This document shows positions 5,054 to 52,588 of a stretch of 64,000 nucleotides of DNA, piece by piece. A program made the position numbers and the translations under genes. The notes under the pieces were generated by a model. The model was not told where the DNA came from, ran no database searches, and worked only from the letters and a program-made list of their open reading frames with translations. Source of the stretch: a virus (lineage: Duplodnaviria; Caudoviricetes); IMG/VR virus record IMGVR_UViG_3300014205_000219, positions 5,057 through 69,056 of that record. One strand, given 5' to 3'. The first letter of the stretch is position 1. Each line of letters begins with the position of its first letter.

Positions 5054-5058
5054 GGTTA

Positions 5059-8702: not shown

Positions 8703-8734
8703 TTTGGGGTACAATGGTGTTTTTATTATCTTTG
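8703..8734 (+). promoter_or_regulatory. Bacteroidota sigmaA-type promoter TTTG-N20-TATCTTTG
   Basis: Both boxes with 20-nt spacer; ATG follows 4 nt later. Confidence 0.75.
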
Positions 8735-8738
8735 TAAT

Positions 8739-9449
8739 ATGGAAAAAATAAGGTTTAGAGATACAAAATATTGGGTTTATCCTGATGGTAGAGTTTGGTC
8801 TGATAGTTTTGGTGGCGGATTTAAGTCATTTACAACTCATTATGTTGGTTATTTACAAACGAGTATAAGTTTGGGAAAAAAGGGTAATAAGGTTAAAAAA
8901 AAGTTTTTTATTCATAGAATGGTTGCGGAGTGTTTTATTCCTAATCCTGAAAATAAGCCTCAGGTTAATCATAAAAACGGAATTAAGACAGATAACAGGG
9001 TAGAGAATTTAGAGTGGTGTACAAGGAAGGAAAACATGAATCACGCTTATGCAACTGGTCTGGTTGAAATTAATGTAAATAATTGGGTTTATCGTAAAAA
9101 TTTGTTTCCTAGAAATGTTTTAAGTGATTATCAGGCTGAAAAAGGTCGTTTGATGTGGTTCAATGGAAAAAGTTATAGTGAGATAGCTTTGGAACTGGGT
9201 GTTAGTAGAAGCGCTGTTTATTCCGCCGTAAATGGCAAAAATGGACATAAATTAAATGGATTTACTCCTATTGATTATAAGAAAAGGGTTGTTTTTTTAA
9301 ATGAAATGGAAAAGGAGTGGAAGAGTGATTTTTTTCGGGCCACTAAAGGCGTAAAAAATAAAAAATATATTATAAACGAAGTTGGTCCGCCGGATTGGAG
9401 TAAGATAATAAACAATGAGCCTATCCCGGTTACTATAAATATTAAATAA
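8739..9449 (+). CDS. HNH homing endonuclease with C-terminal HTH
   Basis: [40 protein letters not shown] motif; [19 protein letters not shown]. Confidence 0.9.
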
Positions 9450-30338: not shown

Positions 30339-30344
30339 TTAAAT

Positions 30345-30372
30345 AAAAAAAACCAACCTTTTACAGTTGGTT
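30345..30372 (-). terminator. Intrinsic terminator on minus strand, loop T-GTAAAA-G
   Basis: AACCAAC TGTAAAAG GTTGGTT plus T8; likely ends the tRNA transcript. Confidence 0.75.
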
Positions 30373-30445
30373 AATTAGACTAGGTCACGCTACTTACCGA
30401 AATTAATCTAAGTGATGAGGGTTGTATCATCAGCGTTCTCTGACT
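30345..30445 (-). ncRNA. Candidate ~100-nt small transcript (structured RNA or 16-aa sORF 30380-30430)
   Basis: Bounded by a consensus promoter and a terminator; hairpins TGATGA/TCATCA and TTAGATTA/TAGTCTAA. Confidence 0.4.
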
Positions 30446-30448
30446 AAA

Positions 30449-30480
30449 CAAATCTACAAATTATGAAACAATCCACCAAA
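30449..30480 (-). promoter_or_regulatory. Promoter TTTG-N20-TAGATTTG
   Basis: Both Bacteroidota boxes, 20-nt spacer; shares TTTGGTGGATT with the 31221-31252 promoter. Confidence 0.7.
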
Positions 30481-30518
30481 TATTTATTGTTAATTATCGC
30501 AGGGGCGGTTTGAATTTG

Positions 30519-30590
30519 TGGGATAGAGAAGTCACGATCTTCATGTGGTTCGGTTTTACAGACCGTCCAGCTTGCCCTGAGCATTATCCC
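30519..30590 (-). tRNA. tRNA-Tyr(GUA), atypical
   Basis: CGGT-CTGTAAA-ACCG anticodon arm; GGGATA/TATCCC acceptor; non-canonical T-loop ATCGTGA and several mismatches. Confidence 0.65.
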
Positions 30591-30595
30591 TTTTG

Positions 30596-30678
30596 CGGAA
30601 AGTAAAGGAATCGAACCCTCACCAACTACGATGTATCCTAGTTTTCAAGACTAGTCGCCTACCATAGGCATACTTTCC
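30596..30678 (-). tRNA. tRNA-Ser(UGA)
   Basis: GGAAAGT/ACTTTCC acceptor, CTAGT-CTTGAAA-ACTAG, long variable arm, TTCGATT loop, G73. Confidence 0.92.
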
Positions 30679-30683
30679 TTATG

Positions 30684-30754
30684 AGGCTTATATTGGAATC
30701 GAACCAATTACTACTGTTTTGCAGACAGTCAACAATCCATTTGTCTTACAAGCC
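30684..30754 (-). tRNA. tRNA-Cys(GCA)
   Basis: GGCTTGT/ATAAGCC acceptor, ACTGT-CTGCAAA-ACAGT, TTCGATT loop, U73. Confidence 0.92.
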
Positions 30755-30759
30755 TTATG

Positions 30760-30832
30760 TGTGATCTTTTGGTATCGAACCAAATCCCCCAGTTTTTCAA
30801 ACTGATGCTTCTACCTAGTTAGCTTAGACCAC
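30760..30832 (-). tRNA. tRNA-Phe(GAA)
   Basis: GTGGTCT/AGATCAC acceptor, TCAGT-TTGAAAA-ACTGG, TTCGATA loop. Confidence 0.92.
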
Positions 30833-30837
30833 ATTTG

Positions 30838-30921
30838 CGGAAGATTGAGTACTCGAAACCCAAACTTTTACATTCAGTTTGTTTAGCAAACAACTACGGA
30901 CACCTATCCGTTTAATCTTCC
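30838..30921 (-). tRNA. tRNA-Ser(GCU)
   Basis: GGAAGAT/ATCTTCC acceptor, TTGT-TTGCTAA-ACAA, long variable region, G73. Confidence 0.85.
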
Positions 30922-30926
30922 TTTTG

Positions 30927-31001
30927 TACGCCGAGTGGGATTCGAACCCACACTGTTAGGATTTTAAGTCCTTTGTCTCCTACCGATTGCACTACCGGCG
31001 C
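30927..31001 (-). tRNA. tRNA-Leu(UAA), short variable loop
   Basis: GCGCCGG/TCGGCGT acceptor, AGGA-CTTAAAA-TCCT, GTGGG-TTCGAAT-CCCAC. Confidence 0.92.
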
Positions 31002-31006
31002 ATTTG

Positions 31007-31081
31007 TACCCCTGCACAGAATCGAACTGTGACCATTCCTGATCCTAAATCAGGCGCGACTACCAATTGCGCAACAGGGGC
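31007..31081 (-). tRNA. tRNA-Leu(UAG), short variable loop
   Basis: GCCCCTG/CAGGGGT acceptor, CCTGA-TTTAGGA-TCAGG, CACAG-TTCGATT-CTGTG. Confidence 0.92.
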
Positions 31082-31116
31082 AAATAAAAAAGCCTCAGAA
31101 ATTAATCCGAGGCCTT
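31082..31116 (-). terminator. Attenuator-type intrinsic terminator immediately upstream of tRNA array
   Basis: AAGGCCTCGGA TTAATT TCTGAGGCTTT 11-bp stem (2 G-U) then U-tract ending about 4 nt before the first tRNA. Confidence 0.85.
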
Positions 31117-31138
31117 GGTAAATTAAATATTTTTATTT

Positions 31139-31216
31139 TTAATTCATAGAATCCCCGGTAACGTTGTGTAACAACGAACTAAATGATAGGAGACAATATA
31201 AATTATTAATTTTCAT
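31139..31216 (-). CDS. Putative leader peptide (25 aa) MKINNLYCLLSFSSLLHNVTGDSMN
   Basis: ATG 4 nt after the -7 box; codons 6-16 TTA TAT TGT CTC CTA TCA TTT AGT TCG TTG TTA match the amino acids of the downstream tRNAs. Confidence 0.8.
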   Translation of the reverse strand: MKINNLYCLLSFSSLLHNVTGDSMN

Positions 31217-31220
31217 ACGG

Positions 31221-31252
31221 CAAATATAACTACTTATTTTTAATCCACCAAA
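31221..31252 (-). promoter_or_regulatory. Promoter TTTG-N20-TATATTTG for leader/tRNA operon
   Basis: Exact Bacteroidota -33/-7 consensus with 20-nt spacer. Confidence 0.8.
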
Positions 31253-31273
31253 ATATTTTTGTAACTTTATTGT

Positions 31274-31795
31274 ATGAAATATTTACCATACATCGCAATC
31301 GCCATCCTACTCATAATCCTGTCATTCCAAACGTGCCAGCCTAAACCGTTGCCAGTAGCTCTAATCAACTCCGACAGCATAGCTAAGCTAGGTTATAATA
31401 AGGGCTATGAGATCGCCAAACTTGAAGATATCGGCAAGGTCAAAGATTCAATCCAAACGCATTACGTTACCAAGTGGAAGGTTTACCGAGAGAAAGCTAT
31501 ACACGATACCATAACCAGGGAGTGTGTGCAAAACTGCGACAGCGCTCTCAATACTCAGTCGGACTACATTTGTCACCTTGAAACTATCAGCGCTCACAAA
31601 GACACGGCAATAACGTATTGGCGTAGTGCGTATAGGGGGGATAGTACGAATGTCAACATGCTCCAATCTGCCATGTCCGACACCGTTAAGTACTTTGGTA
31701 AACGAGTTCGCAGGGGGTACTTTAAAGGATTCCTTCACGGGTTTACGGCTGGGAATGTTACGGGTGGCAGTGTTGTGATGGGAATATCGAGGTAG
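31274..31795 (+). CDS. Putative spanin-like lysis protein
   Basis: N-terminal TM/lipoprotein-like signal (LLIILSFQTC), coiled coil, C-terminal hydrophobic G-rich tail. Confidence 0.5.
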   Translation: MKYLPYIAIAILLIILSFQTCQPKPLPVALINSDSIAKLGYNKGYEIAKLEDIGKVKDSIQTHYVTKWKVYREKAIHDTITRECVQNCDSALNTQSDYICHLETISAHKDTAITYWRSAYRGDSTNVNMLQSAMSDTVKYFGKRVRRGYFKGFLHGFTAGNVTGGSVVMGISR

Positions 31796-49759: not shown

Positions 49760-52588
49760 ATGCCAGATAATAAACCAGCATTTAATCCAAATAAACCGTT
49801 TGTTCCATCGGACAATAATGGTGTAGATAAACCTGCTTTTAATCCAAAAGCTGCGTATAAGCCATTGGAATCTACTGAGACATACAAAGATGCTTTTACT
49901 TCTGTAACGGAGGATATTTACAAAAGTCCTAAAGAAGATAATAAAGTAGAAAGTGCTATTGACTTTATCGCTAAACACCCTACAACAAAAGGTGGTATGG
50001 TTGATTTAGAAAAAGACATATTACGTGGTGTATTTAAAAATCCTAATGCCAGTCAAGATCAAATTAAAGAATCAATTGCTACTATGCAAAGTGGCAATCT
50101 GTATTACTTAAAAGATGAAGGTGGTGTTATGGTACCAAAACAATTGAAGTACGGCGAGAAGCCTCCTAAAGGCTATAACGCGCAATCTGTCTGGGGTAGT
50201 CAAAAGGATGCTAATAATGATTCTTGGTACACTGATTTAGGTAAGAGTTTATACAATGGTGTTATCGGCACGGCAGAAGGAGTTGTTGATTTAGCTCAAA
50301 TGGGTACTATGGCTATCACTGATGATAAAAGTGATTACCTTGCTAATCTTAGTAATACCGCCGAAGCACTTAAATTCACTAAAGATGCAGATATTAACAA
50401 ACCTATATTTAACACGGAGGGAATAAATCAATTTTCCGACTTAGTTGATAAGGATAGATTTGACATTTCACCCGCTGCTTTGTGGGGGACATTAAACATG
50501 GCTGCTGAATCAGTGGTATCATTTTATGGTGGAGCAAAGGGAGCTACTACACTTGCTAAGTTAGGGCCAAAGGCTTCTGCTTATGTAGGCTCTTATCTTA
50601 CGCAATTGGGGGATAACCTTGATAATGCTAAAGAGGCCGGATTAGAAGGAAGGGAAGCTGCTACATTCGCTTCATTAACTACAAGTGTTCAGGCGGCTAT
50701 TGACGCTAAATTTGGACTTGAATCTAAAATATATCAAGCCTCTATGAAAAAACCTGCTGCTGCTTTGTTTAAAGATTTAGCAAAAGGAATAGAGAAGGAT
50801 GCAGAAGGTAAAATAACAGCAGAAGGATTTAAACAACTTGCCAGAGAAACTGCCGATAATTATGGTAAACTTGCTGCAATAGGGGCTAAAGAAATAGGTA
50901 AGGATGCTTTAAAAGAAGCTGGACAAGAAGCGGGACAAGATTTTGTTGCTAAGGCGGCTGAAAACCTATGGGATAAATTAGACATTAATGAGAAAGCAAA
51001 GTTTGGAACTGATGTTACCAGCGCTCAATCATTTGCAAGTTATATCCAAAATGGACTTGCGGGACTTGTCGGTGGCGCTCCAATGGCAATAGCCTCAACT
51101 AATGCTAAAAAGAAATATGACGAACAGAGTGCTAATGCTTATAAAACTGTTCAACAAGGTCCAGCAGCCGTTCAGGAACTAAAAGGTAATTTAGGTGTAG
51201 CAAAAGAGAAAGGACAGATAACTGAACCTGAATACAGAAATGCAGTTGATAAAGTAGACGCTTATCAGAAATACAATGAGCAAACCAAAGACCTTAATTT
51301 AGACGAGAAGCAGAAGAAAGAAACATTCGAGCTTTCTTTTAATATTGAATCTTTGAAGTCTGAGGTTAATCAATTTACAAAAGAAGAGCTCGACCAATTA
51401 GACCCTATTGCACTTGGTAAAATTGATTCTAAGAAGAAAATAATTAAAGGCTTACAAGAAGAGCTTAATAAAATTATACTGCGTGAGGATGTACAGAGAG
51501 AGACTAAGGTAGGGCAAGATACGGTTAATAAGGTAGTGAAGAATGAAACTCCTAAAGAGGGTGAGAAGAAAATATCTGACTTATTAAAAACATTCAAAAC
51601 TCAGGCAACAAAGGTAGATAAGGTGGATGTTAAAGAAGCTGCCAAGCCGGAAGATAAAAAACCTTACAGAAGATTTGCATACGATAGAGATAATACCCCT
51701 GACTTTGATTTAAAAGATAGTAAAGGAAATTATCAGTTTAATAAACTTACTGACCCTATATCTCGTAAAAGAGCACTTACCGATCACTTTGATAAAAACC
51801 CTGAATTAAAGGATGAAGTGGAAGGATATGTTCACCAAAGTCAAAATAACGTATGGCAAGTAGATGTTGGCAATGGAAGGTGGATGCAATTTGCTCGTTC
51901 AATTGACCCCGAAACATTATTAGGTGATACTACTAATTTACCTGAATTAAAGGAAGATGTTAAGGATAGTGATGGTAGACTGTTAACGAGATATAAAGAA
52001 CCTGTTATAGTTAAAATGGAAACTATTACCGGAGATCGTGAAGATCGCAAAGGAAAGCCGTTAAGGATATTTAATGTTTATCGCAAAAGAGATGGAGCAT
52101 ACATTGTTTCTTTAAAAGAAAGACAAAAGGGGAATAGCGATTATAGTGACGGAGAGAAAGCTCAAATGGCAGCTATAAAAGAGCGTGGTTACGTCCCTAA
52201 AAGTAAAGAGTCAGTTAAGGAAGCTGTTAAGAATAGGAATGAATCGGTGGCTACAAAAGTGATAGAATACGGTGATAAGATTATCGCCGGAGAAATATTA
52301 AAATCACCTAAGGATATTCAGTTTTACGAAAATAATAAGAAAGATATTGAAAAGTATTTAGGTGAAAAGGCTGCTGAATATAAAAATAAAGTAGAGAAGA
52401 TAAAGGATAAGATTGTTATTAATCCTATAACTAATCCCACTGATTTGACTAGAAAAATAGCTATCACTAAAAAATTAAAAGGTTCTAGTAAGAAAATACA
52501 AATAGAATCTAATGTTAAGTCAGAACAAAATAAAATATTAAAAAAGGTAGAGTTGTTAAAAAAATTAATAGATTGTATTCATGGATGA
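49760..52588 (+). CDS. Cargo/ejection protein 3
   Basis: 942 aa; N-terminal KPAFNP x2; G/A-rich amphipathic core with EAGQEAGQ. Confidence 0.6.
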   Translation: MPDNKPAFNPNKPFVPSDNNGVDKPAFNPKAAYKPLESTETYKDAFTSVTEDIYKSPKEDNKVESAIDFIAKHPTTKGGMVDLEKDILRGVFKNPNASQDQIKESIATMQSGNLYYLKDEGGVMVPKQLKYGEKPPKGYNAQSVWGSQKDANNDSWYTDLGKSLYNGVIGTAEGVVDLAQMGTMAITDDKSDYLANLSNTAEALKFTKDADINKPIFNTEGINQFSDLVDKDRFDISPAALWGTLNMAAESVVSFYGGAKGATTLAKLGPKASAYVGSYLTQLGDNLDNAKEAGLEGREAATFASLTTSVQAAIDAKFGLESKIYQASMKKPAAALFKDLAKGIEKDAEGKITAEGFKQLARETADNYGKLAAIGAKEIGKDALKEAGQEAGQDFVAKAAENLWDKLDINEKAKFGTDVTSAQSFASYIQNGLAGLVGGAPMAIASTNAKKKYDEQSANAYKTVQQGPAAVQELKGNLGVAKEKGQITEPEYRNAVDKVDAYQKYNEQTKDLNLDEKQKKETFELSFNIESLKSEVNQFTKEELDQLDPIALGKIDSKKKIIKGLQEELNKIILREDVQRETKVGQDTVNKVVKNETPKEGEKKISDLLKTFKTQATKVDKVDVKEAAKPEDKKPYRRFAYDRDNTPDFDLKDSKGNYQFNKLTDPISRKRALTDHFDKNPELKDEVEGYVHQSQNNVWQVDVGNGRWMQFARSIDPETLLGDTTNLPELKEDVKDSDGRLLTRYKEPVIVKMETITGDREDRKGKPLRIFNVYRKRDGAYIVSLKERQKGNSDYSDGEKAQMAAIKERGYVPKSKESVKEAVKNRNESVATKVIEYGDKIIAGEILKSPKDIQFYENNKKDIEKYLGEKAAEYKNKVEKIKDKIVINPITNPTDLTRKIAITKKLKGSSKKIQIESNVKSEQNKILKKVELLKKLIDCIHG

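Follow-up and report, generated by a model that had tools for sequence, protein, structure and literature searches.

A codon-matched leader reading frame and terminator ahead of a phage tRNA cassette: a candidate ribosome-mediated attenuator

In a 64,000-nucleotide stretch of tailed-phage DNA (IMG/VR record IMGVR_UViG_3300014205_000219, positions 5,057 to 69,056; hereafter the window), an array of seven tRNA units on the minus strand is preceded by a promoter-like sequence (P1), a 25-codon open reading frame (ORF) and a predicted intrinsic terminator (T1), and eleven consecutive codons of that ORF specify only amino acids carried by the tRNAs behind it. The initial annotation, made from the sequence alone, read the locus as a leader-peptide attenuator that senses tRNA depletion and switches on the array. 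We favour a multivalent, ribosome-mediated leader-peptide attenuator gating a mobile tRNA cassette, at a probability of roughly 0.55: the architecture passed most of the in silico tests that were run, but the antiterminator contact is at chance level and the locus is a single sequence without homologues in the collections scanned. The elements concerned are as follows.

31221 to 31252, minus strand: promoter P1, with a -33 TTTG (31252-31249), a 20-nucleotide (nt) spacer and the -7 box TATATTTG (31228-31221)
31139 to 31216, minus strand: leader ORF of 25 codons, predicted to be leaderless; peptide MKINNLYCLLSFSSLLHNVTGDSMN, stop codon TAA at 31141-31139
31169 to 31201, minus strand: codons 6-16 of the leader, the 11-codon Leu/Tyr/Cys/Ser/Phe run, 10 of the 11 read directly by the seven downstream tRNAs
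31140 to 31205, minus strand: helix 1:2, the predicted anti-antiterminator, pairing 31205-31197 and 31194-31189 with 31156-31151 and 31148-31140
31107 to 31158, minus strand: helix 2:3, the candidate antiterminator, pairing CCGGGG (31158-31153) with CCUCGG (31112-31107)
31082 to 31116, minus strand: predicted intrinsic terminator T1, with an 11-pair stem (31116-31089), a loop of 6 and a T-tract (31088-31082)
31006 to 31081, minus strand: tRNA-Leu(UAG), 76 nt, without a long variable arm (ARAGORN; Rfam tRNA, 50.8 bits)
30926 to 31001, minus strand: tRNA-Leu(UAA), 76 nt, without a long variable arm (ARAGORN, Rfam)
30837 to 30921, minus strand: tRNA-Ser(GCU), marginal (ARAGORN at the 90% threshold only; no Rfam report at E<=1)
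30759 to 30832, minus strand: tRNA-Phe(GAA) (ARAGORN, Rfam)
30683 to 30754, minus strand: tRNA-Cys(GCA) (ARAGORN, Rfam)
30595 to 30678, minus strand: tRNA-Ser(UGA) (ARAGORN; best Rfam clan match tRNA-Sec, 40.8 bits, under the cut-off of that model)
30518 to 30590, minus strand: Tyr(GUA)-like unit, a doubtful tRNA (ARAGORN at the 80% threshold only)

In the proposed mechanism, host RNA polymerase would initiate from P1 at the A of the start codon, so that the RNA would be leaderless. Without ribosome loading, helix 1:2 would form during transcription, the terminator (helix 3:4) would form next and an RNA of ~135 nt would be released; smooth translation to the stop codon at 31141-31139 would place a ribosome over region 2, and the terminator would again form. 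A ribosome held in codons 6-16 by slow decoding of Leu, Tyr, Cys, Ser or Phe codons would occupy region 1 and leave region 2 free to pair with the 5' arm of the terminator, so that polymerase would continue into the seven tRNA units, with RNase P cutting immediately after the U-tract. As the new tRNAs would relieve the stall, the circuit would be a negative-feedback loop supplying tRNAs on demand. The elements and their spacing, the rarity of the codon pattern and the predicted helices come straight from sequence or computation, and from these we infer the activity and start site of P1, translation of the leader ORF, termination at T1 and the switch itself. Slow decoding from whatever cause would trip such a switch, not tRNA cleavage alone, and the sensing of tRNA destruction by anticodon nucleases, as first proposed for this locus, is speculative.

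The codon pattern of the leader, though its rarity is overstated by selection, is still hard to dismiss. Codons 6-16 are exactly those originally listed. Standard wobble suffices for downstream tRNAs to read 10 of the 11, CTC being the exception, as had been recognised. A run of this kind had been put at ~2e-6 per site, which is too low: six frames of the 3.7-Mb assembly (33% G+C) with which the phage contig is binned (69 kb, of which the window covers most) comprise 7.4 million positions, and in these we measured 4.1e-5 per position. The six frames of the window contain three 11-codon stretches made up wholly of these five amino acids. The codon set is fixed independently by the array, and the fuller pattern is far rarer than the run alone: only two loci in the assembly combine at least 10 of 11 cognate codons with codons for every one of the seven tRNAs, which by our own arithmetic gives a leader of 135 nt a chance of ~4e-5. 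The window has 443 ATG-started ORFs of 15-80 codons, and of these the leader alone has a run longer than eight; it alone touches all seven tRNAs among the 165 of 20-30 codons. No run of this kind appeared in 20,000 dinucleotide shuffles of the leader.

The promoter was found where the initial annotation had placed it, with TTTG-N20-TATATTTG at 31221-31252, and the ATG at 31216, 4 nt past the -7 box, does open a 25-codon ORF that ends in TAA (31216-31139). P1 fits the Bacteroidota primary-sigma consensus of a -33 TTTG and a -7 TAnnTTTG (PMC7366714, PMC9723704), with a spacing within ~19-21 nt, and is one of only eight matches to TTTG-N17-22-TAnnTTTG in the window. A pattern scan of the window found no further promoter-like site between P1 and the tRNAs; T1 lies between this sole promoter-like site and the array, with no space left for a second one. 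The -7 box of Flavobacterium spans -12 to -5 (PMC9723704), so that +1 is predicted to fall on the A of the start codon (31216) and the mRNA would be leaderless. Leaderless or near-leaderless mRNAs amount to 3.7% in B. thetaiotaomicron and 5.5% in F. psychrophilum (PMC7366714, PMC9723704), and leader-peptide attenuation has been reported as likely in flavobacteria (PMC9723704). Elsewhere in the window, a gene for a 236-residue HNH/HTH protein (8739-9449, plus strand; unit 8703-9449) likewise has its ATG exactly 4 nt after a consensus Bacteroidota box, and this HNH endonuclease gene is probably transcribed as a leaderless mRNA.

The 22-nt gap after the ORF, the 11-pair hairpin at 31116-31089 (two of its pairs G-U) and the T-tract were all confirmed, and the T-tract runs right up to position 1 of tRNA-Leu(UAG). 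T1 has a predicted free energy of -16.6 kcal/mol and the full leader one of -32.3 kcal/mol, with a z-score (z) of -4.4. Helix 1:2, which encloses a small hairpin (31176-31162), reaches -15.7 kcal/mol (z -2.9), a stability matched by 1 of 200 shuffles; helix 2:3 (-13.5 kcal/mol, z -2.55) is the minimum-energy fold of the nascent RNA and closes over an A/U hairpin (~31146-31121) that holds the leader stop codon. The GGGG at 31156-31153 is used by both 1:2 and 2:3, so that helices 1:2, 2:3 and 3:4 would be mutually exclusive. The alternative pairings that the initial annotation had drawn were thereby recovered by RNAfold, but the antiterminator contact is no better than that in shuffled leaders. 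Folding under footprint constraints, which had been suggested as a check, was modelled as a constrained partition function with the ribosome reaching 10 nt past the A-site codon: the probability of 2:3 was at least 0.96 with the A site at codons 2-16 and at most 0.02 at codons 17-26, the modelled boundary coinciding with codon 16, the last of the run. A three-helix topology arose in 16% of shuffles; requiring region 1 to lie within codons 5-17 lowered this to 6.5%, and requiring native-like stability as well lowered it to 1%. On these models the structural evidence appears to go only weakly beyond chance, and we treat it as merely supportive. Rfam models scanned over 31082-31260 gave nothing near a gathering score (best 22 bits, E >0.3), and neither a T-box nor any other catalogued cis-regulatory RNA matched the leader by Rfam covariance model; a match to Phe_leader (22 bits, E 0.65) was discarded as noise.

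As for the array itself, the claim of seven tRNAs stood for Leu(UAG), Leu(UAA), Phe, Cys and Ser(UGA), which pass the default cloverleaf thresholds of ARAGORN and Rfam (RF00005), but Ser(GCU) and the Tyr-like unit, the remaining two of the seven, fall below default. In the Tyr-like unit the D arm is weak, the T loop (ATCGTGA) is aberrant and a short variable region stands in place of a long variable arm; false ARAGORN calls begin at the 80% threshold, the level needed to detect it. The spacing between all seven units is exactly 4 nt, which argues that the Ser(GCU) and Tyr-like units are, or were, members of the array. The two phage Leu tRNAs are 76 nt long and the Tyr-like unit 73 nt, versus 84-88 nt for Leu and 85 nt for Tyr tRNAs in the binned assembly.

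The cassette also bears signs of having been inserted as a unit. In three related phages, here called G061 (64% terminase identity), G066 and L011, the flanking genes have no tRNAs between them, and the corresponding slot in G061 holds only a promoter and terminator homologous to those of a second unit (P2 and T2), around a different, 29-codon insert. Two features at the far end of the array bear on this point.

30463 to 30513, plus strand: orphaned 5' gene end of 16 codons and a stop, from another allele of the adjacent gene for a 173-residue protein, at the far edge of the tRNA block
30343 to 30480, minus strand: second unit with its own promoter (P2, 30480-30449) and terminator (T2, 30372-30351), located downstream of the array and outside the switch

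The translation of 30463-30513 is identical to residues 1-16 of protein P0004 and then stops, and the '-33' sequence of P2 corresponds, in reverse complement, to the opening codons of the adjacent 173-residue gene family. The live 173-residue gene (31274-31795) is a mosaic, with a P0006-like N-terminus and a P0002-like body, and an 11-nt direct repeat, TTTGGTGGATT (31242-31252 and 30470-30480), occurs only twice in the window, flanking the tRNA block. With a stranded gene start, a flanking repeat and a mosaic live gene, the cassette looks like a recombined insertion, and we infer that the tRNAs, T1, the leader, the -7 box of P1 and the first codons of the 173-residue gene arrived together from a related phage by recombination. 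If the whole block is a recently recombined insertion, the control region would travel with the tRNAs.

A codon-matched leader of this design exists outside the window, judging from two Caulobacter phages, but it is not universal. In phiCbK (JX100813), a 32-codon ORF (51341-51439) is followed by a terminator predicted by the depositors (51465-51502) and then by an array that runs Phe-Val-Ile-Ile-Val-Gln-Gln...Arg-Arg; residues 4-17 of the ORF, YRQFVRQIQVVRNI, are almost all drawn from the amino-acid set of that array. An orthologous ORF is present in CcrPW (NC_048046, 75752 onward), a phage of a different genus, where residues 4-17, YRNNVQQIRVRQFN, have the same composition in a different order and the array has Asn and Arg tRNAs. 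The leader ORF is unannotated in the stretches of both records that were examined, and a literature search turned up no description of it. Like the locus in the window, these have, in order, a promoter, an ORF (here of 31-32 codons) that draws on the amino acids of the array, a terminator and the tRNA array, and the presence of the design there raises the prior for our locus. They differ in belonging to unrelated phages of a different host phylum with a different promoter type, in that their ORF is not leaderless, in their larger array and other amino-acid set, and in a leader conserved across two genera. The phiCbK record carries depositor-predicted terminators immediately ahead of three tRNA blocks.

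Several observations weigh against an attenuator at this locus. The antiterminator contact consists of six pairs, one of them G-U, and its gain of -3.2 kcal/mol equals the average of shuffled leaders, 57% of which pair the terminator arm equally well (at least 6 bases). The terminator is favoured at equilibrium whatever the ribosome state, so that any switch must be kinetic, as in trp. Leaderless initiation is uncommon; CTC falls outside standard wobble; the modelled sensing window takes in codons 2-5 (Lys, Ile, Asn), for which the array has no tRNAs; and of the seven tRNAs from which the codon set is derived, two, Ser(GCU) and the Tyr-like unit, are marginal. The Glu/Asp and Pro/Pro blocks of phiCbK (JX100813 48081-48166 and 49540-49769) have an ORF and a terminator with no clear codon match. 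Our locus was picked from a very large scan, which overstates its rarity, and as a single sequence with no homologue in the scanned collections it allows no test of covariation or conservation. Homologues of the leader or cassette were sought widely: blastn of the phage collection gave generic tRNA matches only, none was present in 60 relatives or 165 family genomes, none usable came from IMG/VR (five DNA patterns, two protein queries) and none from genome contigs (pattern and profile searches), while a metagenome scan returned one locus, that of L011, which lacks the cassette. Searches of the assembly and related loci with the leader and its peptide (tblastn, blastn) gave noise only, and the unit downstream of T2 in G061 yielded no convincing alignment with the leader. 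In four metagenome runs, parts of the tRNA array are matched by short contigs of nearly the same sequence and 31116-31217 is matched by none, at a depth that is uninformative either way.

The alternative that survives best is that P1 and T1 delimit a stand-alone short unit, either a small RNA (sRNA) of ~135 nt or a small-peptide gene, with the tRNAs expressed by leakage through T1 or by read-through from an upstream minus-strand operon, and with the codon match being coincidental. The neighbouring P2-T2 unit (30480-30343) gates nothing and has its ends kept in G061 around a different insert; helix 1:2 followed by an A/U-rich linker and a terminator resembles a typical small RNA (z -4.4); and the chance-level antiterminator contact fits this explanation as well. 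The tRNA cluster of T4 is accompanied by small stable RNAs, which also counts in its favour. A stand-alone unit, however, leaves unexplained the codon pattern (~4e-5 by chance), an ATG exactly at +1 with 25 open codons in A/T-rich sequence, and the match between the end of the run and the footprint boundary; a strong terminator with no promoter behind it would, moreover, be an odd route to constitutive expression of seven tRNAs. On balance we consider it possible though doubtful.

A protein factor offers another way past T1, in which a processive antitermination factor of phage or host would turn the tRNAs on at a set time of infection. Temporal control by antitermination is common in phages, the cassette is located between late genes, and the late-gene leader of lambda has the same succession of promoter, short RNA, strong terminator and cargo. 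At lambda pR'-6S RNA-tR', where Q acts in antitermination, a constitutive promoter likewise gives a short terminated leader RNA and the cargo is reached only on read-through, but a DNA-bound protein must be loaded at the promoter and there is no translated leader. Neither an antiterminator gene nor a recognisable put-, nut- or qut-like element was identified for our locus, Rfam gave only noise in the leader, and such a factor would explain neither the ORF nor its codon content, so we judge it improbable. Slightly less probable again is a coding role for the ORF, either as a gene for a small, functional, hydrophobic peptide or as the signal-peptide end left behind when movement of the tRNA block disrupted a gene; the richness of its run in Leu, Ser and Phe would then reflect hydrophobicity and not sensing. 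The Lys-containing N-terminus and 11-residue hydrophobic core are signal-peptide-like and the locus already holds one stranded gene start (30463-30513). Against this, the residues that predominate in such segments of A/T-rich genomes (Ile, Val, Ala, Gly and Met) are absent from the core; with the run taken as given, the probability that it also contains Cys and Tyr and touches all seven tRNAs is still 0.043; neither the assembly nor the related loci yielded a similar peptide or DNA; and the stable 1:2 hairpin over the ORF is left unexplained.

If the attenuator reading is correct, the locus has clear parallels among known systems. Multivalent attenuators include the ilvGMEDA leader (Ile, Leu and Val codons) and the thr leader (Thr and Ile), beside trpL, hisL, leuL and pheL. 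With these attenuators of amino-acid operons the phage leader shares a promoter-proximal short ORF in which codons for several sensed amino acids are clustered, an intrinsic terminator behind it and, by prediction, three alternative helices around a common central segment, and codons trail after its run as they do in leuL and ilvL. It has no sequence relationship to them, and differs in gating tRNAs, the product acting directly on the sensor, where they regulate enzymes, as well as in being predicted leaderless, in its much weaker antiterminator contact and in its position on a mobile phage cassette. The E. coli pheST attenuator (pheM leader) controls phenylalanyl-tRNA synthetase and is thus also a case of leader-peptide attenuation applied to a component of the decoding machinery instead of amino-acid synthesis, but it senses one amino acid, regulates a synthetase rather than tRNA genes and is chromosomal. 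The trn tRNA operon of Anabaena sp. PCC 7120 is inducible and stays silent until translation is impaired, under the repressor TrcR (PMC8421152, PMC10272220); it too is a horizontally spread extra tRNA array that is turned on when translation is impaired, although through a protein repressor and not a leader peptide and terminator, and in a cell and not a virus. It was the nearest case in a literature search that found no published leader peptide or attenuator of tRNA genes or operons, in phage or cell, in agreement with the initial annotation, which knew of no described multi-codon attenuator gating tRNA genes.

Both the reason why phages carry tRNAs and the manner of their expression are under debate, with codon compensation set against rescue from tRNA-cleaving defences. 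A true attenuator here would make the transcription of tRNA genes depend on how fast their own codons are decoded, a new use of attenuation, and would give a direct, testable read-out of when a phage needs its tRNAs. To the design seen in the Caulobacter phages, the locus adds its occurrence in a crAss-like Bacteroidota phage, a predicted leaderless version, and evidence that leader, terminator and tRNAs move as one recombining cassette. Codon use gives no hint that this phage has a special need for these tRNAs: compared with the binned assembly, whose assignment as host is uncertain, codons of the array are unenriched in phage genes (most ratios 0.5-0.9), with the exceptions of TGT and TAC at ~1.9-fold. 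This result leaves room for the anticodon-nuclease idea and gives it no support.

A bolder version of the proposal would have the cassette act as a self-contained, mobile 'tRNA-on-demand' module, in which a leaderless, multivalent attenuator moves with its tRNAs between phages and fires specifically when host defence depletes Leu, Ser, Tyr, Phe and Cys tRNAs (mostly UNN decoders plus the class with long variable arms), while the replacement Leu and Tyr-like tRNAs, lacking the long arm, escape the same nuclease. We think this unlikely. Schlafen-type nucleases were considered as a reason for the short-armed Leu and Tyr tRNAs and set aside as unsupported, as the bacterial enzyme that has been studied cleaves the anticodon arms of Lys, Met and Ala tRNAs and not long-armed ones (PMC13056530).

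The phage that carries the tRNA cassette is crAss-like by its gene content. The window encodes a large terminase, a portal protein, a major head protein and a crAss tail-ring protein, which mark it as phage DNA; the terminase is 22-25% identical to those of Crassvirales, and its promoter-like sites are of the Bacteroidota type. Five gut crAss-like phages have scattered tRNAs only, with no analogous leader, and Tenacibaculum phage PTm1 has no tRNA. A single tRNA-Phe in G061 (L018 1280-1574, equivalent to G061:C1:11161-11455) is directly preceded by a stem and a run of eight Ts; the stem is part of a tRNA-like element that has an acceptor, a T arm and an aberrant body, and a further long hairpin with a T-run lies upstream. 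Finally, the promoter and terminator of the P2-T2 unit (30343-30480) are nearly identical in G061 (L019 12880-13110, minus strand), around an interior of ~80-130 nt that is unrelated between the two phages, being a 29-codon ORF in G061 and a 16-codon ORF or small RNA here, and the unit looks like a swap-in slot for small cassettes.

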